Assembly: GCA_963695075.1 (NCBI GenBank)
Contig: CAVOFR010000007.1
Location: 1,312,925-1,376,924, forward strand
DNA: 64,000 bases
Source of the DNA: an uncultured Acidimicrobiales bacterium
GTDB lineage: Bacteria; Actinomycetota; Acidimicrobiia; Acidimicrobiales; CAWCAL01
Reading direction: 5' to 3'
The notes beneath the pieces were generated by a model. The model saw nothing but the letters and a program-made list of their open reading frames with translations. It searched no databases and had not been told where the DNA came from. The position numbers and the translations under genes were made by a program. Each line of letters begins with the position of its first letter. Positions within the stretch are counted from its first letter, which is position 1. Below, piece by piece: positions 9,560-45,874 of this stretch.

Positions 9560-10132
9560 ATGGATCATTTCGGACCCCTTGCACAGCTCGCCGGCGAATG
9601 GGAAGGCTCCAGAGGCCTCGACGTCTCCTATCACCATGCCGATGACCAGGTGGGCGACACGCCCTACCGGGAGGCCGTCAGCTTCAAGCCGTTCGGTCCC
9701 GTCGACAACGGCAGCCAGAAGCTCTACGGGCTCGACTACCGCATGGCTGCCTGGCGGGAGGGTGAAGAGGATCCGTTCCACACCGAGGTGGGGTACTGGA
9801 CCTGGTGCGCCGGCCTCGGCCATGTCATGCGGGGCTTCGTGATCCCGCGCGCGTCGGTCATCCTGGCCGGGGGAGAGGCGGCCCCCGACGCCACCGAGTT
9901 CACCCTCAGAGCCACCGCCGGCGACGAGGTCTACGGGATCTCCAGCAATCCCTATCTTGCTGATAAGGCCCGTTGCATCAGCTACGAGGTGACGATCACC
10001 GTCGAGGGTGACGAGTTCACCTACGAGGAGGACTCGGTCCTCGAGATGGCCGAACTGGACGAGGTGCTGCACCACACGGATCGCAACACGCTGAAGCGGG
10101 TCCAGACCTACGATCTCCCCCCGCCCGAATAG
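9560..10132 (+). CDS. Nitrobindin/FABP-like heme-binding beta-barrel protein
   Basis: GPLAQLAGEWEG, YGLDY, FHTEVGYW, C-terminal HHTDRNTL with the putative heme His. -10-like TATCGT 7 nt before ATG. Confidence 0.75.
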   Translation: MDHFGPLAQLAGEWEGSRGLDVSYHHADDQVGDTPYREAVSFKPFGPVDNGSQKLYGLDYRMAAWREGEEDPFHTEVGYWTWCAGLGHVMRGFVIPRASVILAGGEAAPDATEFTLRATAGDEVYGISSNPYLADKARCISYEVTITVEGDEFTYEEDSVLEMAELDEVLHHTDRNTLKRVQTYDLPPPE

Positions 10133-10182
10133 GAACTTTGGGCATCGACCTCTCACATGTCCGGAAGGATGCCCAAAGTTCG
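10132..10182. repeat. 51-nt palindromic intergenic element, copy A (REP/MITE-like; may act as a bidirectional terminator)
   Basis: Perfect 14-bp arms GAACTTTGGGCATC (10133-10146) and GATGCCCAAAGTTC (10168-10181) between convergent genes. 8/14 left-arm identity to the 30878 copy in the same register. Confidence 0.65.
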
Positions 10183-10205
10183 GCTCGGGGAGACGGGTCG
10201 GACGG

Positions 10206-12509
10206 TTACTCGTACTTGACGCCCATCTCCCGGAGGACGTCGATCAGCTCGGTCGGCGCATCGGGAGCGAAGGCTCCGGGCTCGTAGCTCACCTCCCGGA
10301 GGGTGCCTGTCCAGGGGAACGGTCCGTGCCGACGGTAGATGGCCCAGTCGACGGGTGAGCGACGATCGATGCCCACGTCGATCCCCTCGAACGGCGCCAT
10401 GGTCAGGAAGAGCGGAAAGCCGGCGCCCGAGGCTCGTTCCTCGTCATCGACCGACAGGGCGAAGTCCCACAGGTTCGAGCCCGGAGCGGTGGCGACCAGC
10501 GTGATGGTCGCGGCCCCCGCGGCGAGCGTTCCACCGTCGAGTCGTCTCAGGCGGTGGCCGTCGTTGTGCGTGAAGGTCAGGACGTCGTCCTCGACCGACA
10601 GGAGGTAGCCGCCGCCCTGATCTCCGTGGGCGACCAGGACGCCCCGGTCGCCCGAAGCGAAGTCCAACCGGACGGTGCAGGTGAACCCGCGCCCCCAGAT
10701 CAGCCGCTGGCTGCGCCACCGTTCGAGCGTCGGCGTGCCGGGGGCGATCGTCACCGGCTGCTCGTACTGTTCGACCCACCCCGGGCGGTAGATGTGCTTG
10801 AGGTTCGTCCCCTCCTCGAGGGGGTAGACCTGGTTCTCCCACGCCGCCCGTTCCCAGGCCGCGGCGAGCTCGGTCACCTTGTCGGGGTGCTCCCGGGCCA
10901 GGTCGTGGCACTCGGTCGGATCGTTGACCAGGTCGTACAGCTCCCACTCGTGGTCACCGAACTCGGTGAGGGGCTGGTGCACCGTGACGATCACCCAACC
11001 GTCGCGGTAATAGCCGCGGTGTCCCCACATCTCGTAGTACTGCTCGGGGTGGACCGACGCAGCGTCGGGGTCGCCGATGGTCGGAGTGAAGCTCGATCCG
11101 GCCAGTGGCTGGAGCGGCAGTCCCTGGCGTTCGGTGGGGGCATCGATCCCGCAGAGCTCCAGCAGGGTGGGGTAGAGGTCGGTGACGTAGGTGTATTGCG
11201 AGCGCAACGCGCCCGCATCGGTGATCCGGTCGGGCCAGGAGACGATCAGCGGCACCTGGTGGCCGCCGGCGTGGGTGTTGATCTTGTAGAGCCGGAACGG
11301 CGTGTTGCATGCCATGGCCCAGCCGCGGGGGAAGTGCGGGATGGTCTGCGGTCCGCCGATCTGGTCGAGCCGATCGTGATCGGCCTCCCACTCGGGTTCG
11401 CCCAGGAGGTGGGTGTAGTAGCTGGAGGTGCCCCACTCCTCGCCTTCGCGTGACGCGCCGTTGTCGGAGGTGAAGACGATGATCGTGTTGTCCAGCTCAC
11501 CGAGCTGGTCCAGCGCATCGACCAGGCGGCCGAAGTTCCAGTCGACGTTGTCGACCATCGCGGCGTAGACCGCCATGTAGCGGGCGAACAGCTCCTGCTG
11601 CCGGGGTGCGAGATCCTCCCAGGGGCTCACGTCGTGGGCCTGCTCGCTGTTGCGCGGGGGGAGTTCGGTGCCATCGGCGATGATCCCGTTCGCCACCATG
11701 CGTCGATAGCGCTCGAGCCTCAGCTGGTCCCAGCCCTCTCGGTAGCGGTCGGCGTGGCGTTCGATGTCGCCCGACTTGGCCTGGAGCGGGGCGTGCACGG
11801 CGCCGTGGGCGAAGTAGCAGAAGAAGGGTTTGGTCGGATTGGACGCCTTCAGCGCTCGGATCCGTGTGATCGCTTCGTCCGTGATGTCGTCGGTGAAGTA
11901 GTAGTCGTCCGGGTAGCGGTCGGTCTCGACCTGGGTGTTGTCACGAACGAGCCGGTGCGGTTGATGGAAGTTCGTGAAGCCGTCGAGAATGCCGTAGAAC
12001 GAGTCGAACCCGCGCTGGATCGGCCACGAGCTCCGGTCGCCGGCATGGGCCAGCTCGCTGTCCTTGGACAGGTGCCACTTGCCGACCATGAACGTGGCGT
12101 AGCCGTTGGAGCGGAAGGTCTCGGCCAGCGTCGAGGTGTGCTCGGACAACTCCATGGCATAGCCGGGGAAACCGGGGTCGGAGTGGGCGACGTGGCCCAC
12201 CCCCGCCGCATGGGCGTTGATGCCGGTGAGGAGTGCGGCCCTCGTGGGTGAGCACATCGGCGTGACGTGGAAGTCGGTGTAGCGGAGTCCGCGCTCGGCG
12301 AGTCGGTCGAGGTGCGGGGTGGGGATCTCTCCCCCGTAGCAGCCGAGGTCGGAGTAGCCGAGGTCGTCGGCCAGCATCACGATGACGTTGGGTGCGCCCT
12401 CCGGAGCGTCGGAGCGGTCGGGCCACCAGGACTCCGAACCAGCGAAAGTGCGACCCACCCGTCCACCGAAGTCGGCGTAGGCGGCCAGATCGTCCGCAGC
12501 TTCGGGCAT
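10206..12509 (-). CDS. Arylsulfatase (Cys-type formylglycine sulfatase)
   Basis: MLADDLG, CSPTRAALLTG (CxPxR), GKWHL, GAVHAPLQ, SDNG. SD GGAG before ATG 12509. No signal peptide seen. Confidence 0.92.
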   Translation of the reverse strand: MPEAADDLAAYADFGGRVGRTFAGSESWWPDRSDAPEGAPNVIVMLADDLGYSDLGCYGGEIPTPHLDRLAERGLRYTDFHVTPMCSPTRAALLTGINAHAAGVGHVAHSDPGFPGYAMELSEHTSTLAETFRSNGYATFMVGKWHLSKDSELAHAGDRSSWPIQRGFDSFYGILDGFTNFHQPHRLVRDNTQVETDRYPDDYYFTDDITDEAITRIRALKASNPTKPFFCYFAHGAVHAPLQAKSGDIERHADRYREGWDQLRLERYRRMVANGIIADGTELPPRNSEQAHDVSPWEDLAPRQQELFARYMAVYAAMVDNVDWNFGRLVDALDQLGELDNTIIVFTSDNGASREGEEWGTSSYYTHLLGEPEWEADHDRLDQIGGPQTIPHFPRGWAMACNTPFRLYKINTHAGGHQVPLIVSWPDRITDAGALRSQYTYVTDLYPTLLELCGIDAPTERQGLPLQPLAGSSFTPTIGDPDAASVHPEQYYEMWGHRGYYRDGWVIVTVHQPLTEFGDHEWELYDLVNDPTECHDLAREHPDKVTELAAAWERAAWENQVYPLEEGTNLKHIYRPGWVEQYEQPVTIAPGTPTLERWRSQRLIWGRGFTCTVRLDFASGDRGVLVAHGDQGGGYLLSVEDDVLTFTHNDGHRLRRLDGGTLAAGAATITLVATAPGSNLWDFALSVDDEERASGAGFPLFLTMAPFEGIDVGIDRRSPVDWAIYRRHGPFPWTGTLREVSYEPGAFAPDAPTELIDVLREMGVKYE

Positions 12510-12585
12510 TGAGCACTCCAATGACAGGGTCGGGGGCCGATGGGTGATGGCCATACTCGCGCGCAGTCGACCCCCGGAGCGGTCC

Positions 12586-13701
12586 TTGTCAACCGAGCGC
12601 CGCCGCGACGTCCTGATCGTCTACGGGACGCGGCCCGAACTCATCAAGCTGGCCGAGATCACCCGCCTTCTGGGCGATCGCGCCCGCACGGTGCACACCG
12701 GTCAGCACTACGACGCCGGACTGCACGACGACATCGTCGCTTCCCTGGGAATGCGTGACCCCGATGCCGTCCTCGACGTCGGCGGTCGGTCGCGGGCCGG
12801 CCAGATCGCAGGTGTGCTCGAAGGCCTCGATGCCCTGCTCGAGGAGGCCCGGCCGGCAGCCATCGTCGTCCAGGGCGATACGAATTCGGCCCTGGCCGGT
12901 GGACTCGCCGGCAACGCCCGTGAAGTACCGGTCGTGCACGTCGAGGCCGGTTTGCGATCCCACGACCGCCGAATGCCCGAGGAGCACAACCGGGTCCTGC
13001 TCGATCATCTGGCCGACCTCTGCCTGGCCCCGACCGAGGTGAGCAGAGCCAACCTCCTGGCCGAGGGGATCGAGCACCATCGCATCGTCGTCAGCGGCAA
13101 CACGGTCGTGGAGGCGGTCCAGTCGCGTCTCCCCTGTCCCGATACCCGGCGAGACCTCCTGGATCGCCTGGGGCTGAAGGCCGACGGGTACGTGCTGGTG
13201 ACCCTGCACCGGCCGGAGAACGTCGATGACCCCGCGGTGTACCGGCGCATTCTCGACGAGCTGGTCGCCCTGGATCTGCCCGTCGTGTTGCCCCTCCATC
13301 CACGGTCGCGTGAGCGCTTCGATCGATTCGGGCTCTGCGAGTCGGCCGGTTCGATCCGCCTGATCGAGCCACTGGACTACGCCGACTTCCTGGCGGCGGC
13401 GAAGGAAGCCGCTCTCCTGGTCTCCGATTCGGGCGGCGTGCAGGAAGAGGCGAGCGTGCTGAAACGACCGGTGGTGGTGGTGCGCCGTTCGACCGAGCGA
13501 CCCGAGGTGCTCGGGTCCTTCGCCGACCTCGTCGCCCCTGGCCCTGGGATCGGTGAGGCGGCGCGGTACCGGCTCGCCGGCGACCGTGCCGCCCTGGCGG
13601 AGGTGCCCTCGCCCTACGGGGACGGTACCGCGTCGGCGCTGTCGGTGTCGGCCATCGAGCGGCTGATCGACCGACCGGCGGATTCCTCATTACCGCGGTA
13701 G
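12586..13701 (+). CDS. wecB: Non-hydrolysing UDP-GlcNAc 2-epimerase family (WecB/WbpI-like)
   Basis: YGTRPELIK, QGDT, HVEAGLRS, PEEHNR, TLHRPEN, DSGGVQEEA, PYGDG. Start TTG 12586 (alternative 12544). Confidence 0.9.
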   Translation: MSTERRRDVLIVYGTRPELIKLAEITRLLGDRARTVHTGQHYDAGLHDDIVASLGMRDPDAVLDVGGRSRAGQIAGVLEGLDALLEEARPAAIVVQGDTNSALAGGLAGNAREVPVVHVEAGLRSHDRRMPEEHNRVLLDHLADLCLAPTEVSRANLLAEGIEHHRIVVSGNTVVEAVQSRLPCPDTRRDLLDRLGLKADGYVLVTLHRPENVDDPAVYRRILDELVALDLPVVLPLHPRSRERFDRFGLCESAGSIRLIEPLDYADFLAAAKEAALLVSDSGGVQEEASVLKRPVVVVRRSTERPEVLGSFADLVAPGPGIGEAARYRLAGDRAALAEVPSPYGDGTASALSVSAIERLIDRPADSSLPR

Positions 13702-13804
13702 GCGCGGTCGATGGTGAGGGATCGAGATGCGACTTCACACCGACGACCTCACTGCTTCGCGGGCGACCCCTTCGTCGGCCGCCCGCTCGATCGAGGAGGG
13801 CACA

Positions 13805-15031
13805 GTGACAAGATCCGAGACTCCCGTTCCGGTCTTTCCGAGCGATCAGGACGCAAGCGGTCGCTGGTTGGGCGATGAGGAGCTCGATCGTCTGGGTCAG
13901 GTCATCGCTTCCGGCACGCTGACCGCGACGAAGGGCAGACAGACCAGGGCCCTCGAAGCCGAATTCGCCGACCGGATCGGTGTGAGCCACGCCATCGCCT
14001 GTTCGTCGGGAACCGCGGCGCTGCACACGGCGGTAGCCGCTCTCGATCCCGAGCCGGGCGACGAGATAGTCACGACACCGATCACCGACATGGGAGCGAT
14101 CACTCCGATTCTCTATCAGGGTGCCATCCCGGTGTTCGCCGACGTCGACTCCGACACCGGCAACGTGACGGCGGCCACGATCGAGGATCGGCTCACCGAG
14201 CGCACTCGGGCGGTGATGGTGACCCACCTGTTCGGGAACCCCTGCGAGATGGACGCCATCGTCGACCTGTTGGCCGAGCGGGACATCCCGGTGATCGAGG
14301 ACTGCGCCCAGGCCTATGGGGCCCACGTCGGAAAGCGTCCGGTCGGAGCGATCGGCAACATCGGGTGTTTCAGTCTCCAACAGGGCAAGCACATCACGAC
14401 CGGCGAGGGGGGCCTCGTCGTGACCGATGACGAGGCGCTCGGTCGCCGAGCTCGCGTCTTCGTCAACAAGGGGTGGCCCTATGGTGAGGCCGGGCCCGAC
14501 CACGAGTTCCTCGCCCTCAACTATCGGCTCACCGAGCTCCAGGCCTGCGTGGCCCGAGCCCAGCTCGTGAAGCTCGACGACATGCTCGGTGCCCGAACCC
14601 GGTCCACGGCGCGTTTCGCCGAGCTGATCTCGGGGATCCCCGGGATGGCGGCCCCGATCGTGGCCGACGACAGCACCCACTCGTACTGGCGCTACTGCCT
14701 TCTGATCGACGATGCCGTGATCCCCGGAGGTCCGGAAGCTCTCGCCGAGCAGCTTTCCGCCCACGGGGTTGCCTCGGCCCCGAGGTACATCAAGAAGCCC
14801 GCCTTCGAATGCCGGGTCCTGGCCGAACAACGCACCTTCGGCGATTCGCGCTGGCCCTTCACGCTGGCCAAGCCCGAAGCGGTCGACTACGACCCCCACC
14901 GCTTCCCGGGTGTCTATGCCGCCCTGGACCAGATGCTGGTCCTCGGTTGGAACGAGGGCATGACCGAACAGCATGCCGAAGCTCTCGCCACCGCGCTCCG
15001 CGCCGCGGCGACGGAGGTGTCTCCCCGATGA
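13805..15031 (+). CDS. DegT/DnrJ/EryC1/StrS PLP sugar aminotransferase
   Basis: SSGTAALH, EDCAQA, FSLQQGKHITTGEGG (PLP Lys), NYRLTELQA. SD GAGGAGG before GTG 13805. Confidence 0.92.
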   Translation: MTRSETPVPVFPSDQDASGRWLGDEELDRLGQVIASGTLTATKGRQTRALEAEFADRIGVSHAIACSSGTAALHTAVAALDPEPGDEIVTTPITDMGAITPILYQGAIPVFADVDSDTGNVTAATIEDRLTERTRAVMVTHLFGNPCEMDAIVDLLAERDIPVIEDCAQAYGAHVGKRPVGAIGNIGCFSLQQGKHITTGEGGLVVTDDEALGRRARVFVNKGWPYGEAGPDHEFLALNYRLTELQACVARAQLVKLDDMLGARTRSTARFAELISGIPGMAAPIVADDSTHSYWRYCLLIDDAVIPGGPEALAEQLSAHGVASAPRYIKKPAFECRVLAEQRTFGDSRWPFTLAKPEAVDYDPHRFPGVYAALDQMLVLGWNEGMTEQHAEALATALRAAATEVSPR

Positions 15032-16032
15032 GTCCCATCGAGATCGGGCTCGTCGGCGTCGGCCGCATCGCCCAGACCTATCTGGAGGTGCTGGACACGC
15101 TCGACGACTTCCAGCTGGTCGGTGTCTCCGACGTGAGCCCCGACGCGGTCCACGCGGTCTCGCAGGCCCACGACGTTCCGGGATTCGACGCCGTCGAGCG
15201 CATGATGAAAGAGGCCCGTCCCGAGGCGGTGCTCCTCTGCACGCCCCCGTCGACCCACGCCCACCTCGCGTGCTCTGCGCTCCGGATGGGGGCGGCGGTG
15301 CTGTGCGAGAAGCCGTTGGCCATCGACCTCCCCGCGGCCCGGAGCATGATCGAGACGGCGGTCGAAGCCGGTGGGCTGCTGTCGATGGCGTCGAAGTTCA
15401 GGTTCGTCGAGGATGTCCAGGTCGCTCGTCAGATGGTGGAGCGCGGCGATCTCGGCGAGATCCTGCTGTTCAACAACTCCTTCACCGGATTCGTCGACAT
15501 GGCCGGCCGGTGGAACAGCGACCCCAGTCGCAGCGGTGGAGGCGTCATCATCGACAACGGCACCCACTCGGTGGACATCGTCCGCTGGCTCTTCGGGCCG
15601 ATCACCGAGGTGCTCGCGGTCGAAGGACGCCGGGCCCAACCGATTCCCGTGGAGGACACGGCTCAACTGTTCGTACGGACCGGGACCGGGGTGCTGGGCA
15701 GCATCGACCTGTCGTGGTCGCTCGACAAGTCCGCCCCGCACTACATCGAGATCTTCGGAACACGAGGAACCGTGACCCTGGGTTTCGAGCAGTCCCGCTA
15801 CACGCTCGGAGGCGGCGAGTGGATCGACTTCGGATCCGGGTACAGGAAGGCGGCGGCCTTCACCGGCCAGCTCGAGAACTTCGCGGCCGCTATCCGCGGT
15901 GAGGCCGCGACCTTGGTGACGGCAGAAGACGCGGTCGCCAGCGTCCGCGTCGTCGAGTCGGCCTATTCGTCGCTCCGCGAGTCGCGCTGGGTTCCGGTCG
16001 CCGGCCAGCGGTTCGCCCTGGCCGGAGTCTGA
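15028..16032 (+). CDS. Gfo/Idh/MocA NAD-dependent oxidoreductase (WbpB-like sugar 3-dehydrogenase candidate)
   Basis: GLVGVGRIA, LCEKPL, GGGVIIDNGTHSVD. ATGA overlap. Confidence 0.88.
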   Translation: MSPIEIGLVGVGRIAQTYLEVLDTLDDFQLVGVSDVSPDAVHAVSQAHDVPGFDAVERMMKEARPEAVLLCTPPSTHAHLACSALRMGAAVLCEKPLAIDLPAARSMIETAVEAGGLLSMASKFRFVEDVQVARQMVERGDLGEILLFNNSFTGFVDMAGRWNSDPSRSGGGVIIDNGTHSVDIVRWLFGPITEVLAVEGRRAQPIPVEDTAQLFVRTGTGVLGSIDLSWSLDKSAPHYIEIFGTRGTVTLGFEQSRYTLGGGEWIDFGSGYRKAAAFTGQLENFAAAIRGEAATLVTAEDAVASVRVVESAYSSLRESRWVPVAGQRFALAGV

Positions 16033-16041
16033 TCCGAGAAC

Positions 16042-16662
16042 GTGGTGGCACCCCGTATCCACCCGACGGCTCTCGTCGAGGACGGGGTCGAGCTCGGCGA
16101 TGGAACGAGCGTGTGGGATCACGCGCATCTGCGAGGTCCGAGTCGCATCGGACGCAACTGCATCATCGGAGGCAAGACATACGTGGCCTATGACGTCGAG
16201 CTCGGCGACATGGTCAAGCTCAACGCCTTCGTATACGTGTGCGCGGCGGTGACGATCGAGGAGGGCGTGATGGTGGGCGCGCACACGGCCTTCACGAACG
16301 ACAGGTTTCCGCGCGCAAGCGACGCCGAACTGACCGAGCTCCGGAGCTCGGAGCCCGACGGGCACACGAGACCCACTTTCGTACGTCGAGGTGCGACGCT
16401 CGGGGCGCGGGTGGTCGTGGGTTCCGAGCTCGAGATCGGCGCCTGGTCGATGGTGGGAATGGGATCGGTCGTGACCGCTTCGGTGCCGGCTCATCACCTC
16501 GTGGTGGGGAATCCGGCGCGCACGATCGCGTACGTGTGTCGTTGCGGAGAGCCGTTCCGCCGCCGAAGCGATCCCGACGTCGAGTCCGCGGTCTGCCGGT
16601 CGTGCGGACGCGGCTACCGGGTCGAGCGGGGCCGCGTCGACGAACTGGGGGTCCCGGCATGA
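16042..16662 (+). CDS. Hexapeptide-repeat N-acetyltransferase (WbpD/WlbB-like) with C-terminal Cys cluster
   Basis: IHPTALVE, hexapeptide repeats, FTNDRFPRA, VVGNPAR, CRC...CRSC. Confidence 0.88.
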   Translation: MVAPRIHPTALVEDGVELGDGTSVWDHAHLRGPSRIGRNCIIGGKTYVAYDVELGDMVKLNAFVYVCAAVTIEEGVMVGAHTAFTNDRFPRASDAELTELRSSEPDGHTRPTFVRRGATLGARVVVGSELEIGAWSMVGMGSVVTASVPAHHLVVGNPARTIAYVCRCGEPFRRRSDPDVESAVCRSCGRGYRVERGRVDELGVPA

Positions 16663-29690: not shown

Positions 29691-29741
29691 GAATCTGGGC
29701 AGGCCTGACCACCTCAGCGGTGGAGAATCCTTCACAGATCC
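29691..29741. repeat. 51-nt palindromic intergenic element, copy B (degenerate)
   Basis: GAATCTGGGCAGGC-N23-TCCTTCACAGATCC. 10/14 arm pairs. Inner CCACC-tcagc-GGTGG stem in the same register as copies C and D. Confidence 0.55.
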
Positions 29742-30877: not shown

Positions 30878-30928
30878 GGATCTGGAGTCACGCAGCTACA
30901 TCAGATGTAGTCAGGTGACTCCAGATTC
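30878..30928. repeat. 51-nt palindromic element, copy C (bidirectional terminator position; overlaps the 3' end of the GT2 gene)
   Basis: GGATCTGGAGTCAC-gcagCTACATcagATGTAGtcag-GTGACTCCAGATTC. 14/14 arm pairs including one G-T. Confidence 0.8.
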
Positions 30929-31699
30929 GGTCTCGACGGCCTTCGAGGTCGCATCGGTGAGCGTGATCGCACCCCGATCGGATCGTCGCCCCTGGGCGAG
31001 CGGCGAGTACTTCGCGATGCAGTACACGGCTCGGACGCCATCCTTCCAGCCGATCTTCTTTCCCTCTTCGTAGGTGCGGCCGCTGTACGAGACACCGACC
31101 TCATAGACCCGCCAGCGGCCCGCGGCGATCTTGCCGGTGATTTCGGGCTCGATGCCGAACCTGGTCTCCTCGAGATCGAACGAGTCGAGGACCTCTCGAC
31201 GGAACGCCTTGAAACACGTCTCCATGTCGGTGAGGTTCAGGTTGGTGAACATGTTGGACAACAGGGTCAGGAATTTGTTTCCGATCATGTGCCAGAAATA
31301 GAGGACGCGATGCGGTCGACCGCCGAGGAATCGTGACCCGTAGACGACGTCTGCCCGCCCGTCGAGGAGCGGGGTCATCATCTCGCCGTAGTCGGCGGGG
31401 TCGTACTCCAGATCGGCGTCCTGCACGATCACGAATGGCGCAACCGCTTGCTCGAAGCCAAGGCGTAACGCCGCACCCTTCCCCCGGTTGCGGGGCTGGC
31501 GGAACGAGCGAACCCGGTGGTCGTCCAGCCCGGCGATGATCTCGTCGCTGCCGTCGGTCGAGGCGTCGTCGATGATGAGCACCTCCTGGCAGAACGGCGA
31601 GTCGAGCACGCGGTCGACGACCTCGGACAGGGTGGCCCGTTCGTTGTACACGGGCATGATCACCGACAGGCAGGGTGCAGGTTGGGTGGGGGAAGCCAT
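30911..31699 (-). CDS. GT2 glycosyltransferase (DPM1/polyprenol-phosphate-mannose-synthase-like)
   Basis: SVIMPVYNE, IDDASTDG, NRGKGAAL, VQDADLEYDP, YGSRF, TDMETCFK, EGKKIGWKDG. Confidence 0.92.
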   Translation of the reverse strand: MASPTQPAPCLSVIMPVYNERATLSEVVDRVLDSPFCQEVLIIDDASTDGSDEIIAGLDDHRVRSFRQPRNRGKGAALRLGFEQAVAPFVIVQDADLEYDPADYGEMMTPLLDGRADVVYGSRFLGGRPHRVLYFWHMIGNKFLTLLSNMFTNLNLTDMETCFKAFRREVLDSFDLEETRFGIEPEITGKIAAGRWRVYEVGVSYSGRTYEEGKKIGWKDGVRAVYCIAKYSPLAQGRRSDRGAITLTDATSKAVETESGVT

Positions 31700-31802
31700 G
31701 GGACCTTCTTCTGTCCGGCGAAACGCTAGCCGTGCTGATCGATTCTCGGGTGGTCGAGGCGTCGGTTCCCGCCGGTGGCGGACCAGATTACGGCCACGGG
31801 GA

Positions 31803-38326: not shown

Positions 38327-38398
38327 CCGGCTGCTCCGGACCGGTCGGAGTCCGGCCCCCGACCGATGGGCCGCGCCGATGATCGGAGCGTCTACCGT

Positions 38399-38417
38399 AT
38401 GTGACGACCCGTCAGAT
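38399..38417. promoter_or_regulatory. Palindromic operator, copy 3 (ATGTGACG-ACC-CGTCAGAT)
   Basis: One mismatch to consensus. -10-like TACCGT at 38393-38398. Ends 22 nt before GTG 38440 of the LLM-TetR operon. Confidence 0.8.
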
Positions 38418-38439
38418 CCCGCATCGGGTCGGGAGGACC

Positions 38440-39321: not shown

Positions 39322-39989
39322 CCGACGCGGTCGAGGCCGAGGCGGGGCCCCGGGCAGCCGACGGTCGGGTGCCCGGTCGTCGGGGCCGGGCCACGCGCAC
39401 CAAGCTGCTCGAACAGACCAGAGCGATGCTCCGGACGACCTCGTACCGCGACCTCAAGGTTGTGGACATCGCACGAGAGGCGGGGACCTCACCCGCCACC
39501 TTCTACCAGTACTTCCCCGATATCGAGGCCGCCATTCTCGTCCTGGCCGAGGACATGGCCACCGACGGCGTCCGGCGCTTCAGTGATCTCGTCCTCGAGC
39601 AGCCCTGGCGGGGTCGGAACGGATACGAGACCGCACAGAACCTGGTCACCGGCTTCGTCGAGTTCTGGTCCGATCACGCCGATGTACTGCGGGTCGTCGA
39701 GCTGGTCACCGAGGAAGGCGACGGCCGTTTCCGTCAGATCAGGACGCGCATGCTCAACGGTCTCACGGTCGCTCTGGCCGACGTGATCGAGATCGAGCAG
39801 CGAGCCGGTCGTCACCCCGAGCGCCTCGACCCCGCGGCGACGGCCGGAGTACTCGTGGCCATGCTGGCCAACGTCTCGGCCCGTCGCTACGGCTTCGAGT
39901 TCTGGGGCATCCGGACCGAGGACATGGAGTTCTCCATGGCCCGGGTGGTGTTCTCGGCGGTGACCGGTCAGCGCCCGCCCAAGGACTGA
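39318..39989 (+). CDS. TetR/AcrR family transcriptional regulator (candidate binder of the TGACG-N3-CGTCA operator)
   Basis: RGRATRTKLL...LKVVDIAREAGTSPATFYQYF HTH. GTGA overlap with the LLM gene. Confidence 0.9.
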   Translation: MTDAVEAEAGPRAADGRVPGRRGRATRTKLLEQTRAMLRTTSYRDLKVVDIAREAGTSPATFYQYFPDIEAAILVLAEDMATDGVRRFSDLVLEQPWRGRNGYETAQNLVTGFVEFWSDHADVLRVVELVTEEGDGRFRQIRTRMLNGLTVALADVIEIEQRAGRHPERLDPAATAGVLVAMLANVSARRYGFEFWGIRTEDMEFSMARVVFSAVTGQRPPKD

Positions 39990-40005
39990 CGGCTACGGTC
40001 CGCTC

Positions 40006-40314
40006 GTGCCCGACGAGCCCGATCCGCAGCTCTGGATGCCATATGGGCCGCCCCTCCCGGCCGCCAACACCAAGGCCACCGCCGCGCTGGTGTGCGGGAT
40101 CATCGGGATGCCGCTCGGTACCCTCTGCATGCTCGGCGTGGGTCTACCCATCGCCGCCATCGTCCTCGGCCATCAGGCCCGAGCCCAGATCAGCGTCACC
40201 GGGCAGCAGGGATGGTCCACAGCGACCGCGGGGATGGTCATGGGATACGTCGGTACGTCACTCATGATCCTGGCGCAGCTCCTGTCCATCGGCGTTGGCC
40301 TGTGGGGAGCCTGA
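40006..40314 (+). CDS. Small 2-TM DUF4190-like membrane protein
   Basis: TNTKA-like ANTKATAALVCGIIG, AIVLGHQARAQI, GQQGWSTATAGMVMGY. -10-like TACGGT 6 nt before GTG. Confidence 0.75.
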   Translation: MPDEPDPQLWMPYGPPLPAANTKATAALVCGIIGMPLGTLCMLGVGLPIAAIVLGHQARAQISVTGQQGWSTATAGMVMGYVGTSLMILAQLLSIGVGLWGA

Positions 40315-40386
40315 ACGGTCACCCTCGACGGACCGTCGGCGACCTACGGTGGACGGGGCCGAGCAGACGAGGACGGAGACGACACG

Positions 40387-40830
40387 ATGAGCGACTACCC
40401 CGAGGGACCCGATTGGTGGCAGGCCAGCGACCACAAGTGGTACCCGCCCGAGTCGGCACCCGGCCGGGTGACGCAACCCGCGATGCCGGCCCCGGGGCAG
40501 GTGCCGCCGACGCCCGGCGTGCCGCCGGCGCCGCAGATGCCGGGCTACCCGACGATGCAGGCCGGTCCCAAGAACAACGGTCTGGCCATAGCGTCGATGG
40601 TGACGAGCATCGTTTCCGTGTTCTGCCTGGGAGTGTTCGGCATCGTCGGCGCGATCATGGGCCATGTGGCGCTCGGCCAGGTCAACAAGTCGGGCGGCAC
40701 GCAGACCGGCAAGGGCATGGCCATCGCGGGCATCGTGATCGGTTGGCTCACCTTTGCGCTGTTCCTGGTCTACATAGTGCTCGTCGTTGCGGTCGCCGAC
40801 GACAGCTCGTGGACCTTCGAGACCTACTGA
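40387..40830 (+). CDS. DUF4190-like membrane protein with N-terminal WWQASDHKWYPP (DUF2510-like) motif and Pro-rich linker
   Basis: NNGLAIASMV, GAIMGHVALGQV, GKGMAIAGIVIGW. Confidence 0.78.
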   Translation: MSDYPEGPDWWQASDHKWYPPESAPGRVTQPAMPAPGQVPPTPGVPPAPQMPGYPTMQAGPKNNGLAIASMVTSIVSVFCLGVFGIVGAIMGHVALGQVNKSGGTQTGKGMAIAGIVIGWLTFALFLVYIVLVVAVADDSSWTFETY

Positions 40831-40840
40831 CCCCGGACCC

Positions 40841-41581
40841 GTGAGCCTCGACCGATTCACCGGCCGGGTCGCGCTGGTCACCGGAGCCGCGTCCGGGATC
40901 GGCCGGGCCACCGCCGAGCGCCTGTCGGCCGAAGGGGCCGCGGTGTGGTGCACCGACGTGGCGCCGGCGGTCGAGGTGGTAGCGGGGTCGCTCGACGACG
41001 GGGCCTGGTCGTGCTGCGACGTCGCCGATCCCGATCAGGTCCGGGACACCATCGCCGCGGTCGTGGAACGTCACGGGCGTTTGGACGTCCTCGTCAACAG
41101 CGCCGGGATCCTCCTGTTCGAAAACGCTCACGACACGACCTTCGAACAGTGGAATCGGGTCCTCGCCGTCAATCTCACCGGCACGTTCCTCTGCTCGATG
41201 GCGGCGCTGCCCCATCTCCTCGCCGGGGGCGGGGCGATCGTCAACATCTCGTCGTCAGCTGCACTCACCGGCCATCCGTGGGCGGCCGCCTACGGGGCAT
41301 CGAAGGGTGGTGTCCTGGCGCTCACCCGATCACTGGCGATCGAATACGGCCGACAGGGGCTCCGCGTGAATGCACTGTGCCCGAGCAACATCGCCACCCC
41401 GATCCGCGAAGAGTTCCGGTTTCCGGACGGCGCCGACCGCTCGCTGCTCGACCGGATCCTGCCGTACCACCTCGAAGGCAAGCCGGCCGACGTCGCCGCC
41501 GCCGTGGCGTTCCTGGCGTCGGACGAAGCGCGGCACGTCAACGGCGCCGAGCTGCGAGTCGACGGGGGCGACCTCTCGTGA
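40841..41581 (+). CDS. SDR family oxidoreductase
   Basis: TGAASGIG, NSAG, YGASK, RVDGG. Confidence 0.92.
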   Translation: MSLDRFTGRVALVTGAASGIGRATAERLSAEGAAVWCTDVAPAVEVVAGSLDDGAWSCCDVADPDQVRDTIAAVVERHGRLDVLVNSAGILLFENAHDTTFEQWNRVLAVNLTGTFLCSMAALPHLLAGGGAIVNISSSAALTGHPWAAAYGASKGGVLALTRSLAIEYGRQGLRVNALCPSNIATPIREEFRFPDGADRSLLDRILPYHLEGKPADVAAAVAFLASDEARHVNGAELRVDGGDLS

Positions 41582-42444
41582 AGTTCGGCATCCTGCCGCC
41601 CTATCGCACCGGGGTGACCGCGGATGCCCGCTGGATGACCGCGTTCGTGCAACACGCCGAGGAGCTGGGATTCGAGTCGGTGTACGTGGTCGAGCACGTC
41701 GTCGTGGTCTCGGGCTACGCCGAGCGGTACCCCTACTCCACGACGGGACGCATGCCTCTGCCCGACGACTGCGACATCCCCGATCCCCTCGAGCTGTTGG
41801 CCTATCTCGCCGCGGTGACCGAGCGGATCGTGTTGGCTACCGGCATCCTGGTGATGCCGCATCACCATCCACTCGTCCTCGCCAAGCGTCTCGCCACGCT
41901 CGACGTCCTCTCGGGAGGTCGAGTTCGTCTGGGCATCGGCGTCGGGTGGATGGAGGAGGAGCTCCAGGCCACGGGAATCGACTTCGCCACCCGCGGTCGA
42001 CGGACCGACGAGATCATCGACGCGATGCGGGTCACCTGGCGCGAGGAGGAGTCCACATTCATCGGGCGATTCTTCGAGTTCTCCCGAGCCCGCTCGTACC
42101 CCAAACCGCTGCAGGTCGGTGGCGTGCCCATACACATCGGCGGCCACAGCGAGACCGCTGCCCGTAGGGCAGGACGGCTCGGAGACGGCTTCCACCCCCT
42201 CGGACTCGACCCCGAGACGCTGTCGGAGCGCATGGCGATCCTCCGCCACACCGCTGACGAATACGGTCGGGATCCCGATGTGATCGAGCTGTCCCTGGGC
42301 GGTCATCTCACGACGGTCGACCGAGCTGCGGTCGATGCGATGGCCGAGCTGGGAGCCCACCGCATGGTGATCAGCACGGCGACGGCCGACCTCGACACAC
42401 TCCGTCGCGAGATGGACGAGTTCGCCCGCCGCGTGATCGGATAG
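41578..42444 (+). CDS. LLM-class (probably F420-dependent) oxidoreductase
   Basis: AEELGFES, EHVV, PDPL, ATLDVLSGGR, GVGWMEEE, IHIGG, GDGF. GTGA overlap. Confidence 0.88.
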   Translation: MKFGILPPYRTGVTADARWMTAFVQHAEELGFESVYVVEHVVVVSGYAERYPYSTTGRMPLPDDCDIPDPLELLAYLAAVTERIVLATGILVMPHHHPLVLAKRLATLDVLSGGRVRLGIGVGWMEEELQATGIDFATRGRRTDEIIDAMRVTWREEESTFIGRFFEFSRARSYPKPLQVGGVPIHIGGHSETAARRAGRLGDGFHPLGLDPETLSERMAILRHTADEYGRDPDVIELSLGGHLTTVDRAAVDAMAELGAHRMVISTATADLDTLRREMDEFARRVIG

Positions 42445-42449
42445 CCGCC

Positions 42450-43211
42450 ATGGAAGACTCGGAGTTCACGGCGCGGGTCGCTCTGGTGACCGGTGGCGGC
42501 TCGGGCATCGGAGCGGCCACGGCACGTCGATTCGCCTCGGCCGGGGCCGCCGTGGTGGTGGCGGACATCGACGAGGCGGGCGCCGCCGCCGTGGCCGGCC
42601 AGATCGTGACGGCCGGCGGGTCAGCCCGATCCGTCGGAGTCGACGTCACCGACGGTGGGCAGGTCGACGAAATGATCGCGGTCGCGGTCGACACCTTCGG
42701 CGGATTGGACCTCGCTTTCAACAACGCCGGGATCTCGGGCACGTTCGGTCCATTGGCCGATCTCTCGGTCGACGACTGGCAGCACACGATCGACGTCAAC
42801 CTGACGGGGGTGTTCCGGTGCCTGAAGGCCGAGGTCCCGCTGATGCTCGAGCGCGGAGGTGGATCGATCGTCAACACCAGCTCTGCTGCCGGCCAGATGG
42901 GATTCGCCATGCTCCCGGCCTACGTCGCGGCCAAGCATGGAGTGATCGGGCTCACCCGCAGCGCCGCCCTCGAGTATGCCCGGATCGGTATCAGGGTCAA
43001 CGCCGTGTTGCCGGGGACCGTGCACACACCGATGCTCGAGGCCTTCGCCGGTGGGGCCGATCGGGTCGCTGCCATGGCGGCACCTTCGCCGGCCGGCCGT
43101 GCGGGTACCCCCGAAGAGGTCGCCGAGGCGGCGGTCTGGCTGTGTTCCGATGCCGCCCGGTTCGTCAACGGACACTGCCTCGCAGTGGACGGGGGAGTGC
43201 TGGCCAGCTGA
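42450..43211 (+). CDS. SDR family oxidoreductase
   Basis: TGGGSGIG, NNAG, YVAAKHG, VDGG. Confidence 0.92.
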   Translation: MEDSEFTARVALVTGGGSGIGAATARRFASAGAAVVVADIDEAGAAAVAGQIVTAGGSARSVGVDVTDGGQVDEMIAVAVDTFGGLDLAFNNAGISGTFGPLADLSVDDWQHTIDVNLTGVFRCLKAEVPLMLERGGGSIVNTSSAAGQMGFAMLPAYVAAKHGVIGLTRSAALEYARIGIRVNAVLPGTVHTPMLEAFAGGADRVAAMAAPSPAGRAGTPEEVAEAAVWLCSDAARFVNGHCLAVDGGVLAS

Positions 43212-43281
43212 GGCGGGCACCGGCGGGAGGGGGACTGTTCTGGCACGGATTCGGCTCGCTCGGTACCTTCGATGGTTGGCG

Positions 43282-43653
43282 ATGAACACTCGAGGGATCC
43301 AGTTCCCGGGGGAGCACCTCGGGACCAAAGGCACGGACGAGCTCACCTCGGCTGACGCGCGTCGACGTTGGCATTTCGTCGTCGCTCTCGTCGTGCTGAA
43401 CGGAGCCGATCTCCTCACCACGCACTTCGTCCTGGCGAACGGCGGCCAGGAGACCAACCCGCTCATGGCTCCGATCATCGACGGATGGTTGGTCCCGGTG
43501 GTGGCGAAGTGCCTGGCCTTGATGGCCGTGGCGCTCTGCGTGGCCGCGAGACCGGCCAAGTCTCGGTTGGTCGACTGGGCTCTGGTGATCACCACCGGGT
43601 GGTATGGCGGAGTCGTCGCCTGGAACACCGTCGTCATCGTCCTGCTCCGCTGA
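43282..43653 (+). CDS. Small membrane protein (DUF5658-like)
   Basis: LNGADLLTT, GGQETNPLM, three hydrophobic helices. Confidence 0.65.
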   Translation: MNTRGIQFPGEHLGTKGTDELTSADARRRWHFVVALVVLNGADLLTTHFVLANGGQETNPLMAPIIDGWLVPVVAKCLALMAVALCVAARPAKSRLVDWALVITTGWYGGVVAWNTVVIVLLR

Positions 43654-43654
43654 C

Positions 43655-44170
43655 ATGGCATTCACCATGCGTCGGCACGCGGCCCGCGTGATACTGCTGG
43701 ATCGCTCCCTCGAACACGTATTCATGATCCACGCGTCCGATCCTGCCGATCGGACCAAGCGCGACTGGTGGGAGACCCCCGGGGGAGGCATCCACCACGG
43801 TGAGGGTTCGGCCGAGACCGCCATGCGGGAGCTCTACGAGGAAGCGGGGATCACCGAAGGCGAGGTGGGTCCCTGCGTCGCGGTCCAACAGGTCGAATTC
43901 GATTTCGGCGGCCTGCACTTCGATCAGGACGAACGGGTGCACGTGGCGTGGATCGACGAGATACCGAGCGATGCGCGGCCCCGGGGACTCGAGGCGCTGG
44001 AGGTCGCGGCGTTCATGGGGAGCCGGTGGTGGCCGGTCGGCGAATTGATGACGGCAGAGGTGGCCGTCCTCCCGGTGCGCCTGCGCGAGCTTCTACCGAT
44101 CCTGGTGAACGGTGATCTGCCGGCCGAGCCCATCGACATCACGCCACCCGAGGATCTCGTCTGGCCCTGA
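43655..44170 (+). CDS. NUDIX hydrolase
   Basis: AARVILLD, WETPGGG, Nudix box GGGIHHGEGSAETAMRELYEEAG. Confidence 0.9.
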   Translation: MAFTMRRHAARVILLDRSLEHVFMIHASDPADRTKRDWWETPGGGIHHGEGSAETAMRELYEEAGITEGEVGPCVAVQQVEFDFGGLHFDQDERVHVAWIDEIPSDARPRGLEALEVAAFMGSRWWPVGELMTAEVAVLPVRLRELLPILVNGDLPAEPIDITPPEDLVWP

Positions 44171-44238
44171 GCCGGATTGCCGGCGATGATCCGCCGGAGC
44201 CCCAAACCGCCGGTCTCCGCCGGTCGGCGGAGCCCCTA

Positions 44239-44257
44239 GGCTGACGGTCCGTCAGGA
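44239..44257. promoter_or_regulatory. Palindromic operator, copy 4 (ggCTGACGG-T-CCGTCAGga)
   Basis: Perfect 15-bp core at 44241-44255. Overlaps -10-like TAGGCT (44237-44242). Ends 23 nt before ATG 44281. Confidence 0.82.
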
Positions 44258-44280
44258 ATCGTGGACCGAGGGGATTCGTC

Positions 44281-45816
44281 ATGCCGACCAGCCGATCACT
44301 CTGGGGGCTCGTCACCGAGCGCGCGACCGAGACGCCCGACGCGCTGATGATGGTCGACGAGCACGACCGTACGATGACCTTCGCCGAATACCTCCTTGCA
44401 GCCGAGCGGGCCGCCGCCGGGCTGGCCGACCTGGGCCTCGGACCCGGAGACGTCGTGGCCTGGCAGCTGCCGACGTGGATCGAGTCGGCCGTCCTGGTCG
44501 CCGCCCTGTCCCGTCTCGGTGTGACCCAGAACCCCATCCTCCCGATCTATCGCGAGCGAGAGGTCGGCTTCTGCACCAAGCAGGCCGGTGCCAAGATGCT
44601 GATCGTTCCCTCCGTCTGGAACAACGTGGATTTCCGGGCCATCGGTGAGACGGTCGCCGCCGAGAACGGCATGGGCATGTCGGTCCTGGTCGCCGACAAC
44701 GTCCTGCCCGAGGGCGACGCGTCGACCCTGCCACCGGCGCCGACCGAAGAGGACGCCGACGCGGTTCGCTGGCTTTTCTACACCTCCGGCACGACCGCTG
44801 ATCCGAAGGGCGCCCAACACACCGACGCGTCCATCGCTGCGATCGGCTCGGCCATGGGCGAGCGCCTCCGCTGCGGCCCCGACAGCCGCAACGGGATGGT
44901 CTTCCCCTTCACGCACATCGGTGGGATCACGTGGCTGTTCACGAGTCTCCAGACCCGGTGCGCCAACATCTTCATCGAAGCGTTCGTGCCCGATCTGATC
45001 GTGAGAACGCTCGGCAGGAACCGGGTCACGCACGCCGGCGCCGGAACGGTCTTCCACCAGGCGTATCTCGCGGCGCAGAAGGAATCCGAGGAGCCGATCT
45101 TCCCCGACGTCACCTGCTTTCCGGGCGGTGGTGCCCCCAAGCCACCACAGCTCCACGCCGCCCTGCTCGAGGCCTTCCCCATGTCGGCGGGCGTTCTGTC
45201 CGGCTACGGGCTCACCGAAGCGCCGATCCTCACGATGTGCGACTTCGAGATGGATGACGAGGCACTGGCGACGACCGAGGGGTACGCGATGCCCGGAGTC
45301 GATCTGAAGCTGGTGACCGTCGACGGCGAGGTGGCCGGCACCGGTGAGGAGGGGGAAGTGCGGGCGAAAGCTCCGCAGCTCATGAAGGGATACCTGGACT
45401 CGACGCTCGATGCCGCCGGCTTCGACGACGAGGGCTACTTCCGGACCGGCGACCTCGGCCGACTCGACGAGAAGGGGAATCTGGTGATCACCGGCCGGTT
45501 GAAGGACGTGATCATCCGCAAGGGCGAGAACGTCTCGGCCAAGGAGGTCGAGGACGTGCTCCACGCCAACGAAAAGGTGGGCGACGTCGCCGTGATCGGT
45601 CTGCCGGACGAGCGCAGCGGCGAGCGGGTGTGCGCGGTTGTCCAGACCGCCGGCGGGCAGGATGACCTGACGATGGAAGAGATGGTCGAGTTCTGCAAGG
45701 GCAGCGGGCTGATGATCCAGCGCGTGCCCGAGCAGCTCGAGATCATCGACACCATTCCCCGCAACCCGGCCGGCAAGGTCATGAAACACGTCCTCAAGGA
45801 CCAATACACCGCCTGA
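44281..45816 (+). CDS. Acyl-CoA synthetase (AMP-binding enzyme)
   Basis: YTSGTTADPKG, GYGLTE, YFRTGDLG, RLKDVIIRKGEN, PAGKV. Confidence 0.93.
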   Translation: MPTSRSLWGLVTERATETPDALMMVDEHDRTMTFAEYLLAAERAAAGLADLGLGPGDVVAWQLPTWIESAVLVAALSRLGVTQNPILPIYREREVGFCTKQAGAKMLIVPSVWNNVDFRAIGETVAAENGMGMSVLVADNVLPEGDASTLPPAPTEEDADAVRWLFYTSGTTADPKGAQHTDASIAAIGSAMGERLRCGPDSRNGMVFPFTHIGGITWLFTSLQTRCANIFIEAFVPDLIVRTLGRNRVTHAGAGTVFHQAYLAAQKESEEPIFPDVTCFPGGGAPKPPQLHAALLEAFPMSAGVLSGYGLTEAPILTMCDFEMDDEALATTEGYAMPGVDLKLVTVDGEVAGTGEEGEVRAKAPQLMKGYLDSTLDAAGFDDEGYFRTGDLGRLDEKGNLVITGRLKDVIIRKGENVSAKEVEDVLHANEKVGDVAVIGLPDERSGERVCAVVQTAGGQDDLTMEEMVEFCKGSGLMIQRVPEQLEIIDTIPRNPAGKVMKHVLKDQYTA

Positions 45817-45823
45817 CCAAGCC

Positions 45824-45874
45824 GGATATGGAGTCGCTGGCCTACCGTCATTGTGGGTAGGTGGCTCCATATTC
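45824..45874. repeat. 51-nt palindromic intergenic element, copy D
   Basis: GGATATGGAGTCGC-N23-GTGGCTCCATATTC. 34/51 ungapped identity to copy C, with all arm differences retaining pairing. Confidence 0.8.

Follow-up and report, generated by a model that had tools for sequence, protein, structure and literature searches.

Analysis of the short hairpins dispersed behind stop codons in the genome of an uncultured actinobacterium (4.65 Mb, 68% GC) suggests, with a probability of roughly 70%, that they form a DNA-level REP-like system of five 51-bp families, each with its own gene for an AbiEi-type winged-helix (wHTH)/EDxHD nuclease located between two copies of that family. This pairing of family and nuclease is previously unreported, and a REP/RAYT-like system built on a different enzyme class is the best reading of it, in which we infer that the nuclease binds its elements, cuts them and drives their propagation. 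The observations behind this reading concern the families, their geometry, placement and covariation, the one-to-one pairing, its recurrence in the phylum and the presence or absence of elements between species.

BLAST clustering and nhmmer revealed 255 dispersed element loci genome-wide, belonging to the families F1 (59 loci), F2 (30), F3 (28), F4 (12) and F5 (126); the nhmmer figure is preferred for F5 because the count of its arm 13-mer (248) includes approximately 100 matches expected by chance, and many F5 copies retain one arm only. The first-pass annotation of the window (the whole 64,000-nt stretch of DNA that was analysed) had described dispersed, REP/MITE-like small palindromes at the 3' ends of genes, which agrees with this census, but had treated them as a single family, which does not. 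The five families have their length and related termini in common: the length is exactly 51 nt in 125 of the 128 full-length F1-F4 copies, the elements end in GGAT, CGAA or GAAT, and the conserved terminal motifs of the families are GGWTNTGG, CGAACTTTG, GAATCTG and CGAAATCTGG, the F3 consensus being CGAACTTTGGGCAT-23 nt-ATGCCCAAAGTTCG. Hairpin abundance in this genome far exceeds chance, and a scan of the whole genome for hairpins with 13-nt arms gave approximately 100 at each odd spacer length up to 25-27 nt, followed by a steep drop. Arms of 13 nt with a spacer of 25-27 nt correspond to a total length of approximately 51 nt. A covariance-model search had been put forward as the check that could refute the hairpin family; with a model built from F1 it returned 118 full-length matches in this genome (both strands counted) and 55 and 41 in two sister species, and F1 has real covariation, so the check did not refute the family. 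No Rfam matches at the gathering score were detected in the window, and permissive Rfam searches of related loci produced only spurious sub-threshold miRNA-hairpin noise, while a search for the F2/F3 sequence pattern found it only in the host's own genus. A three-frame stop 'cassette' was considered as a design; it is found in F1 only (TAG, TGA and TGA, on both strands) and is no general design feature, since F2-F5 lack it.

Regarding the window, the four elements reported earlier were recovered at the same positions and in the same ungapped alignment of 14-nt arm, 23-nt interior and 14-nt arm, each 0-16 nt behind a stop codon; no strand is assigned to any of the four. Copy A (10132-10182) is a member of F3 (nhmmer 54.9 bits; 45/51 identity to the F3 consensus) and lies between convergent genes, with a TAG stop that overlaps it by 1 nt, sharing its first base, and the opposing stop 23 nt off. 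Copy B (29691-29741), located within a same-strand gene run 16 nt past a TGA, is degenerate and weakly F4-like, with 29/51 identity to the F4 consensus, arms that pair at 10 of 14 positions and F4-like ends (GAATCTG..CACAGATCC); at its orthologous site the sister species G002 has a different 51-nt element with the same ends and another interior, and the site is empty in G001. The first-pass annotation had proposed that copy B could tune mRNA stability within its operon. Copy C (30878-30928) belongs to F1 and is of the near-perfect 24-bp hairpin type (covariance-model E 4.7e-15; 41/51 identity to the F1 consensus); it starts 2 nt past a TGA, the converging minus-strand gene at 30911-31699 has its stop codon inside it, and it is missing at the orthologous site of both sister species. 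Copy D (45824-45874), 7 nt past a TGA and with the next start codon 98 nt on, is a diverged F1 element (covariance-model E 9e-12; 35/51 to the F1 consensus). Copies C and D are identical at 34/51 positions, as had been noted, and A and C at 22/51 and B and C at 25/51, barely over chance. A further element, overlooked in the first reading, is present on the minus strand at 31742-31792 between two minus-strand genes, with a stop codon 10 nt away; it matches positions 1-34 of the F5 model (nhmmer 26 bits) and consists of the conserved arm GGACCAGATTACG and an inner CCGNCGG..CCGGCGG-type hairpin.

The same placement is seen across the genome, with gene positions taken from our own GC3-based caller. 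Copies are located in convergent (97), tandem (107) and divergent (28) spacers, although only 17% of the intergenic sequence is in convergent spacers and 31% in divergent ones. Among 112 F1-F4 copies, 21 overlap a stop codon, 67 lie 0-15 nt after one and 11 are more than 30 nt away, so that 79% overlap a stop codon or are within 15 nt of it.

Searches with tblastn and HMMs detected exactly five paralogues of a fusion of an AbiEi-type winged helix and a Vsr/EDxHD-type nuclease in the genome, and each has one distinct family of F1-F5 on both sides, such that all five families are paired (5/5). These are the only genes bracketed by elements; they are free-standing in intergenic spacers, between two palindromes and not in a group I intron or intein, and an element is present upstream of all five. 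Whole palindromes, not half sites, border the F1, F2 and F4 genes, and the conserved F5 arms point outward on either side of their gene in the manner of terminal inverted repeats. The protein has the domains AbiEi_4 and MTES_1575/DUF559, and E260, D262, H267 and D276, which constitute the EDxHD motif, are invariant in the five paralogues; in an alignment of 40 homologues conservation is complete at E, H and the second D and no lower than 90% at the first D. The best PDB sequence match is I-Bth0305I (3r3p, E 4.6e-4). In an AF2 model (pLDDT 89) the N-terminal part matches AbiEi (6y8q, E 6e-7) and Rv2827c (1zel), and the C-terminal part matches 3r3p with a target-normalised TM-score of 0.77-0.78. 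By catalytic residues and modelled fold the partner protein is thus a predicted EDxHD/Vsr-like nuclease. The literature on DUF559/AbiEi together with palindromes, repeats or Mycobacterium yielded nothing relevant.

Homologues of the nuclease were detected in 96 of 151 genomes of the order and 138 of 401 genomes of the phylum. At 39 of 56 homologue loci of Actinomycetota the sequences to the left and right of the gene are related, vs. 1 of 400 mismatched pairs, as determined by a left-right similarity test with a mismatched-pair null, which replaced a strict automatic hairpin classifier that undercounted flanking repeats (17/56); approximately 30% of the sampled homologues have no flanking repeats. 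Genome G101 contains 32 dispersed copies of the 51-nt palindrome that flanks its nuclease gene. Genome G386, which we infer to be a Mycobacterium, has two nuclease paralogues, each flanked by one subtype of a 56-nt palindrome (102 copies), so that both element subtypes are paired with a nuclease (2/2). This palindrome, GAGCAGACG...CGTCTGCTC, spans the genomes tentatively assigned to Mycobacterium, flanks homologues of the same nuclease and, judged by its fit to the published description, may be the TRIT (Tuberculosis Rho-independent terminator) motif of Mycobacterium (Gardner et al., 2011; PMC3152330). In the sister species of the host the orthologous nucleases (56-73% identity) carry elements with related termini, and at orthologous sites an element is variously present, absent or exchanged for one of another family; in G002 the corresponding spacer lacks the whole F2 element-nuclease-element cassette of 1,094 bp. 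At several sister-species loci the orthologous flanks are separated by additional DNA, which consisted of ordinary genes and no nuclease cassettes. Neither a target-site duplication nor a clean insertion junction could be made out, either around the flanked genes or between filled and empty sites, where sister-species spacers are too diverged for duplications to be read from the comparison.

Regarding the level at which the symmetry is maintained, 89.4% of F1 stem cells are paired vs. 79.7% in shuffles (0 of 500 shuffles as high), and double-change cells number 148 vs. 66; pair 9/43 is AU in 34 copies, GC in 22 and unpaired in none. The compensatory covariation claimed in the first-pass annotation therefore holds within F1, where double changes keep the stem paired, but the changes listed between copies B and C compare unrelated families, since identities of this kind are barely over chance. 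The terminal F1 pairs 3/49 and 5/47 have no pairing constraint and the ends are therefore read as sequence. An alternative explanation takes the elements as RNA, that is as selected 3'-end structures of transcripts (factor-assisted terminators, RNase III sites or stabilisers), as proposed for TRIT, with nuclease genes that just carry two of them. Their position directly behind stop codons and their long, stable and covarying stems agree with it, as does the resemblance of TRIT 3' ends in M. tuberculosis to RNase III cuts (PMC13714241), although few Term-seq ends coincide with TRIT (10.1101/2022.06.01.494293). In tandem contexts, however, mismatches oriented by transcription comprise 51 of the G:U type vs. 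42 of the A:C type, which is no excess on the sense strand, the asymmetric families F2, F3 and F5 have both orientations about equally frequently, and a U-tract after the elements is absent (mean of 1.7 T in the next 10 nt; three or fewer T in 60 of 62 copies), so that they have the hairpin of a canonical intrinsic terminator but not its U-tract. Because there is no G:U excess, no orientation bias and no U-tract, the symmetry of the palindromes looks DNA-level and not RNA-level, and the selection on RNA structure suggested previously is not borne out. The RNA reading also conflicts with termini conserved as unpaired sequence and leaves unexplained both why five families flank their own nuclease paralogues and why one family replaces another at the same site; it is considered unlikely.

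Other explanations keep the symmetry in DNA and differ in the agent. Autoregulation by binding of inverted repeats is a property of AbiEi-type wHTH proteins, so that the copies on either side of a nuclease gene could act as its operators or terminators instead of being transposon ends. The proteins would then be regulators, nucleoid proteins or anti-phage nucleases and the palindromes immobile self-marks or operators, in keeping with the fold match to AbiEi and Rv2827c and the element upstream of each nuclease gene. Such a regulon or defence system is nevertheless improbable: a set of over 250 nearly identical units of 51 bp, spread over the ends of unrelated genes, cannot originate in situ, sites are filled, empty or hold different families between species, and no AbiEii toxin gene (PF08843) adjoins any of the five nuclease genes, the two matches in the genome (C7:636991 and C7:529583) being far off. 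The elements might also be MITEs of a conventional insertion sequence, with fused terminal inverted repeats as 51-bp units and a DDE transposase elsewhere, and here the outward-facing F5 arms and the numerous single-arm F5 copies would fit; this is very improbable given that no genes but the nucleases are bracketed, that whole palindromes surround the F1, F2 and F4 genes and that no target-site duplication was seen in the diverged spacers. Least credible of all is mobilisation as classical REPs by a Y1 (HUH) transposase. The link to a RAYT made in the first-pass annotation was accompanied by the statement that none is encoded, which is correct for the window, but the sole PF01797 (Y1_Tnp) gene of the genome (C7:1389572-1389901) lies 12.6 kb past the window end, and REPs too are found after genes (PMC3733652). 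This RAYT was rejected as the mobiliser because a different, 41-nt palindrome (GTGCGTTATCGGGGTCTGTCCCCGATAACGCAC, approximately 11 copies) flanks it on both sides, and the link is not supported; a single RAYT stands against five families, and the elements have neither the GTAG or CGTC tag nor the 20-40 nt of a REP.

In the nuclease-based REP-like system favoured here, a nuclease dimer would read the conserved terminal motifs of its own family, either on the duplex or on an extruded hairpin or cruciform, with a stem that must pair and may have any sequence, and the fixed length of 51 bp would reflect how far the protein complex reaches along the DNA. Once an element is cleaved, host repair or copying could spread or replace elements, and copies would survive where they are least harmful, right behind stop codons, sometimes providing the stop. 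In transcripts, the long hairpins probably have a further influence on mRNA 3' ends as RNase III substrates or exonuclease blocks, an effect that would be a by-product and not the cause of the symmetry. Counting against propagation by the nuclease, a plain nuclease has no strand-transfer activity. Simple binding of a dimer to duplex DNA does not predict strict stem covariation, and hairpin or cruciform recognition, or a copying process that regenerates symmetry, must therefore be assumed. A broader proposal, to which slightly less than even odds are given, is that AbiEi-wHTH/EDxHD nucleases are the missing trans partner of the palindromes behind stop codons in Actinomycetota, TRIT among them, each paralogue recognising, cutting and thereby propagating or homogenising its own family through a terminal code and a sequence-free stem of fixed length, as a second, independently evolved and nuclease-based symbiosis of the REP/RAYT kind.

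High-GC actinobacteria commonly have short palindromes close behind their stop codons, and the mycobacterial TRIT has been known since 2011; its sequence conservation implied 'further cellular machinery', a question that the one-to-one pairing with a nuclease makes experimentally approachable. If the proposal is true, a large family of 'DUF559 / AbiEi-like hypothetical proteins' would acquire a function, the REP/RAYT paradigm would gain a second enzyme class, and the origin and turnover of gene-end hairpins that shape mRNA 3' ends would be explained. The families could also be used as markers in strain typing and in annotation, the latter because they mark true stop codons.

Compared with known systems, the elements resemble the Correia elements (CREE) of Neisseria as dispersed inverted repeats at gene ends for which no classical transposase is known, but CREE are 100-160 bp long, have terminal inverted repeats of 26 bp and duplicate a TA, belong to another phylum and have no known cognate gene; their transcripts are cleaved by RNase III (PMC13714241). 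With the AbiEi antitoxins (6y8q of S. agalactiae and 1zel, Rv2827c of M. tuberculosis), a protein type that binds inverted repeats, the partner protein shares the N-terminal winged helix and the middle domain, while it differs in having no AbiEii partner and a nuclease as its C-terminal third. I-Bth0305I, a dimer, makes contacts over as much as 60 bp and favours a pseudopalindromic site (Taylor et al., 2011; PMC3239194), and this and other EDxHD homing endonucleases have the same catalytic fold and the same E-D-x-H-D residues, the 60-bp span being close to 51 bp; in contrast, the genes described here are free-standing, without intron or intein, have an AbiEi-like N-terminal module and are associated with hundreds of short palindromes instead of one homing site. 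TRIT is likewise a palindrome of approximately 50 nt whose sequence is conserved; it is mostly bidirectional, exceeds 100 copies per genome and keeps a very narrow distance to the stop codon, and a motif-binding factor was guessed for it (PMC3152330). It shares with the present elements the size, the many copies and the narrow distance. The mycobacterial palindrome that may correspond to it, GAGCAGACG...CGTCTGCTC over 56 nt, differs in sequence from the five 51-nt families; TRIT was reported as restricted to Mycobacterium whereas the present host belongs to another class of the phylum, and it has been interpreted as a terminator or processing site in RNA without a reported gene, in contrast to the nuclease gene paired here. 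REPs, defined as imperfect palindromes of 20-40 nt that carry GTAG or CGTC as a tag at one end and associated with the RAYT (Y1 HUH transposase) (Nunvar et al., 2010, PMC2817692; Di Nocera et al., 2013, PMC3733652), differ in the tag, in the fixed 51 nt and in the enzyme, which is an HUH tyrosine transposase vs. a wHTH and Vsr/EDxHD PD-(D/E)XK-type nuclease, and the true RAYT of this genome has its own REP. The two systems are alike in their high-copy extragenic palindromes after genes (204 convergent and tandem copies vs. 28 divergent ones here) and in having multiple families per genome, each tied to a single-copy gene that is flanked by its repeats.

Comparative analysis of the assembly (4.65 Mb, 68% GC) containing the window (contig C7:1312925-1376924) revealed five families of palindromic elements (F1–F5) that have a fixed length, lie at gene ends, are symmetric at the DNA level, are each associated with one gene and recur across the phylum. 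The arm sequences, searched with mismatches allowed, matched at dozens of sites, the second arm always following the first at 37 nt. A scan for 13-nt inverted repeats gave about 100 matches at each odd spacer up to 25–27 nt and about half as many at even spacers, with a drop to background beyond 25–27 nt, a profile indicating many hairpins with a total length of about 51 nt. Clustering followed by nhmmer defined F1 (59 loci; GGATATGGAGTCACTCAGCTACATCTCGTGTAGCTGAGTGACTCCATATCC, 24-bp stem), F2 (30 loci; CGAACTTTGTGCTCTGGC-15 nt-GCCAGAGCACAAAGTTCG), F3 (28 loci; CGAACTTTGGGCAT-23 nt-ATGCCCAAAGTTCG), F4 (12 loci; GAATCTGTGCAAGG...CCTTGCACAGATTC) and F5 (126 loci), the last combining a single conserved arm (CGAAATCTGGTCC) with a CCGTCGG-N4-CCGACGG hairpin in the interior and a far end that is only weakly conserved. 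The length is exactly 51 nt in 125 of 128 full-length F1–F4 copies. The further copies anticipated from a covariance-model search exist, the F1 model yielding 118 full-length matches in this genome (both strands counted) and 55 and 41 in the other two species of the genus. At C3:758634-758722, where there is no nuclease locus, two to three F5 arms stand in direct tandem (GGGACCAGATTTCGG recurring about 38 nt apart).

Regarding the window itself, the first-pass annotation described four hairpins, A (10132-10182), B (29691-29741), C (30878-30928) and D (45824-45874), as one family. All four are in place, copy A has perfect 13-bp arms (GGAACTTTGGGCAT-23-ATGCCCAAAGTTCG), and C and D are identical at 34/51 positions with arms that pair in full when G:T is allowed, but a single family holds for C and D (F1) only, A being a member of F3 and B, whose arms pair at just 10/14 positions, at best a decayed relative of F4. 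The reported position 0–16 nt after a stop codon also stands, with a TAG stop overlapping A by one base and stops preceding B, C and D by 16, 2 and 7 nt; neighboring genes are convergent around A and C and on the same strand around B and D. Genes were called with a custom GC3-based method (4,025 genes, 88.7% coding). A further element, at 31742-31792, belongs to F5. The minus-strand gene 30911-31699 has its TGA stop inside element C and about 25 additional C-terminal codons relative to orthologs in both sister species, which lack element C and about 60 nt adjoining it; the end of this gene appears to have been remodeled through the insertion of element C.

Among element pairs less than 3 kb apart, several are about 1.03 kb apart and each encloses a single gene. 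Five of the enclosed genes are paralogs (23–58% identical), exactly five were detected in the genome by tblastn and HMM search, and each lies between copies of a single family, F1 at C3:762597-763496, F2 at C7:1245003-1246028, F3 at C3:497294-498301, F4 at C1:328935-329888 and F5 at C2:37186-38229 (C numbers denoting contigs). They encode AbiEi_4 (winged helix) and MTES_1575/DUF559 domains with an invariant EDxHD motif (E260, D262, H267, D276), and by sequence the top PDB match is to the homing endonuclease I-Bth0305I (3r3p, E 4.6e-4), with Vsr next. In an AlphaFold model (pLDDT 89) the first two thirds match AbiEi (6y8q, E 6e-7) and Rv2827c (1zel), while the last third matches 3r3p with a target-normalized TM-score of 0.77–0.78. 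An AbiEii toxin gene was not detected adjacent to any of the nuclease genes. At five loci in other genomes of the order (L059, L060, L061, L070, L071), two to three palindromes in tandem flank the nuclease gene on one or both sides.

The sole RAYT, a Y1 transposase with HHH...YIHRNP motifs and a C-terminal extension, lies 12.6 kb past the window end (C7:1389020-1390030, 12.1–13.1 kb beyond it). It is disfavored as partner of F1–F5 because the palindrome on either side of it is a different one, 41 nt long (GTGCGTTATCGGGGTCTGTCCCCGATAACGCAC), with about 11 dispersed copies. It represents a further REP/RAYT-like system, of the classical type, in this genome.

In the sister species, the F1, F3, F4 and F5 nucleases have counterparts (56–73% identity) whose flanking elements end in related sequences (GGATTTGGGGTC for F1, CGAACTTTGGGC or CGAAACTTGGGC for F3, GAATCTCGGCC for F4 and CCGAAATTCCGTCC for F5). 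Clear F2 copies were not detected there and the F2 nuclease has no ortholog in these species; one element of sister species G002 has a mixed F2/F3 arm. Of 151 genomes from the order, 96 encode nuclease homologs, as do 138 of 401 from the phylum, typically with several copies per genome. A repeat common to both flanks (score at least 20) is present at 39 of 56 sampled loci from 27 genomes, vs. 1/400 mismatched flank pairs, and the shared repeats are mostly palindromes of 45–65 nt, many of them 51 nt exactly. Genome G101, which belongs to a different family of the order, has 32 dispersed copies of the palindrome around one nuclease gene, each of them 51 nt long.

Nearly all elements are intergenic. 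Convergent spacers, which make up 17% of intergenic bases, contain 97 copies and divergent spacers, at 31%, contain 28; a further 107 are in tandem spacers. The stop codon is overlapped by 21 of the 112 F1–F4 copies that adjoin a gene end; 67 begin 0–15 nt downstream of it, and just 11 are separated from it by more than 30 nt. Copies in tandem spacers lie at a median of 11 nt from the stop and 51.5 nt from the following start. All five families start with xGA and end with TCx, so that a single base change yields TGA on either strand, and a TGA made from the terminus was seen in several copies. At C7:1158499, C3:648763, C8:9059 and C3:486074 the interval between the shared flanking genes contains 0.65–2.9 kb of additional genes in sister species; elements thus often lie at gene-content breakpoints.

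Elements have been gained, lost or replaced between species. The orthologous spacer of copy C has no element in either sister species, C7:783602 is likewise empty in both, and at the site of copy B G002 has a 51-nt element with the same ends and another interior while G001 is empty. C7:2070971 has F1 here and another F1 subtype in G001, and C7:971434 has F2 here and an F1-like element in G001, both sites being empty in G002. The complete F2 element-nuclease-element cassette (1,094 bp) is absent from the same spacer in G002, and some other element copies are common to all three species. No target-site duplication was readable at filled vs. empty sites across the diverged sister-species spacers.

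The proposed stem covariation is strong within F1, where 89.4% of cells pair vs. 79.7% in shuffles (0/500 as high; about 37% in slid controls) and double-change cells number 148 vs. 66. Pair 9/43 is GC in 22 copies and AU in 34 and never broken, while the terminal pairs 3/49 and 5/47 are unconstrained in pairing even though their bases are conserved (W and N); the termini thus resemble a sequence motif, and the part between them resembles a stem of free sequence. Such pairing could reflect selection on RNA, as was suggested previously, but three tests argue against an RNA-specific constraint: no G:U excess was detected on the transcribed strand in tandem contexts (51 G:U-type vs. 42 A:C-type mismatches), both orientations of the asymmetric families F2, F3 and F5 are about equally frequent, and no U-tract follows the elements. 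The symmetry therefore looks like a property of the DNA. A secondary influence on mRNA 3' ends is likely.

In two genomes of another class, nuclease homologs lie between GAGCAGACG-N38-CGTCTGCTC palindromes, a pattern found in named records almost only in Mycobacterium, Mycolicibacterium and Mycolicibacter, from which we infer that the carrier genomes are Mycobacterium. Of 124 copies in the named records, 107 are exactly 56 nt long. Copies lie a few bases after stop codons, most commonly 7 nt. In one genome the 102 copies fall into two inner-arm subtypes, each flanking one nuclease paralog; among 120 loci picked by the element alone, the nuclease is directly adjacent in 3. Many copies (L098-L217 and G386) have a conserved asymmetric central CGACACGCCG motif in either orientation, resembling the conserved asymmetric centers of F2, F3 and the G101 family. 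The family fits TRIT, the palindromic gene-end motif of Mycobacterium, by its published description rather than by a TRIT model: 147 copies in M. tuberculosis, about 50 nt, genus-restricted, at a narrow distance from stop codons (PMC3152330).

Regarding mechanism, a dimer of the nuclease protein may bind the terminal motifs via its AbiEi-like module, the nuclease domain would then cut the element, and repair or copying would let it spread or overwrite resident copies. The related I-Bth0305I is a dimer whose contacts extend over as much as 60 bp of pseudopalindromic DNA (PMC3239194), so the 51-bp length could reasonably derive from a protein ruler. The stem-pairing requirement may stem from hairpin or cruciform recognition or from a copying step regenerating symmetry. 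No Rfam family was found for the elements, nor did the literature searched connect DUF559/AbiEi-type proteins with palindromic repeats or with TRIT. Systems in which a repeat family has its own gene, enclosed by its copies, are already known from REP/RAYT, but not with this enzyme class or this element design.
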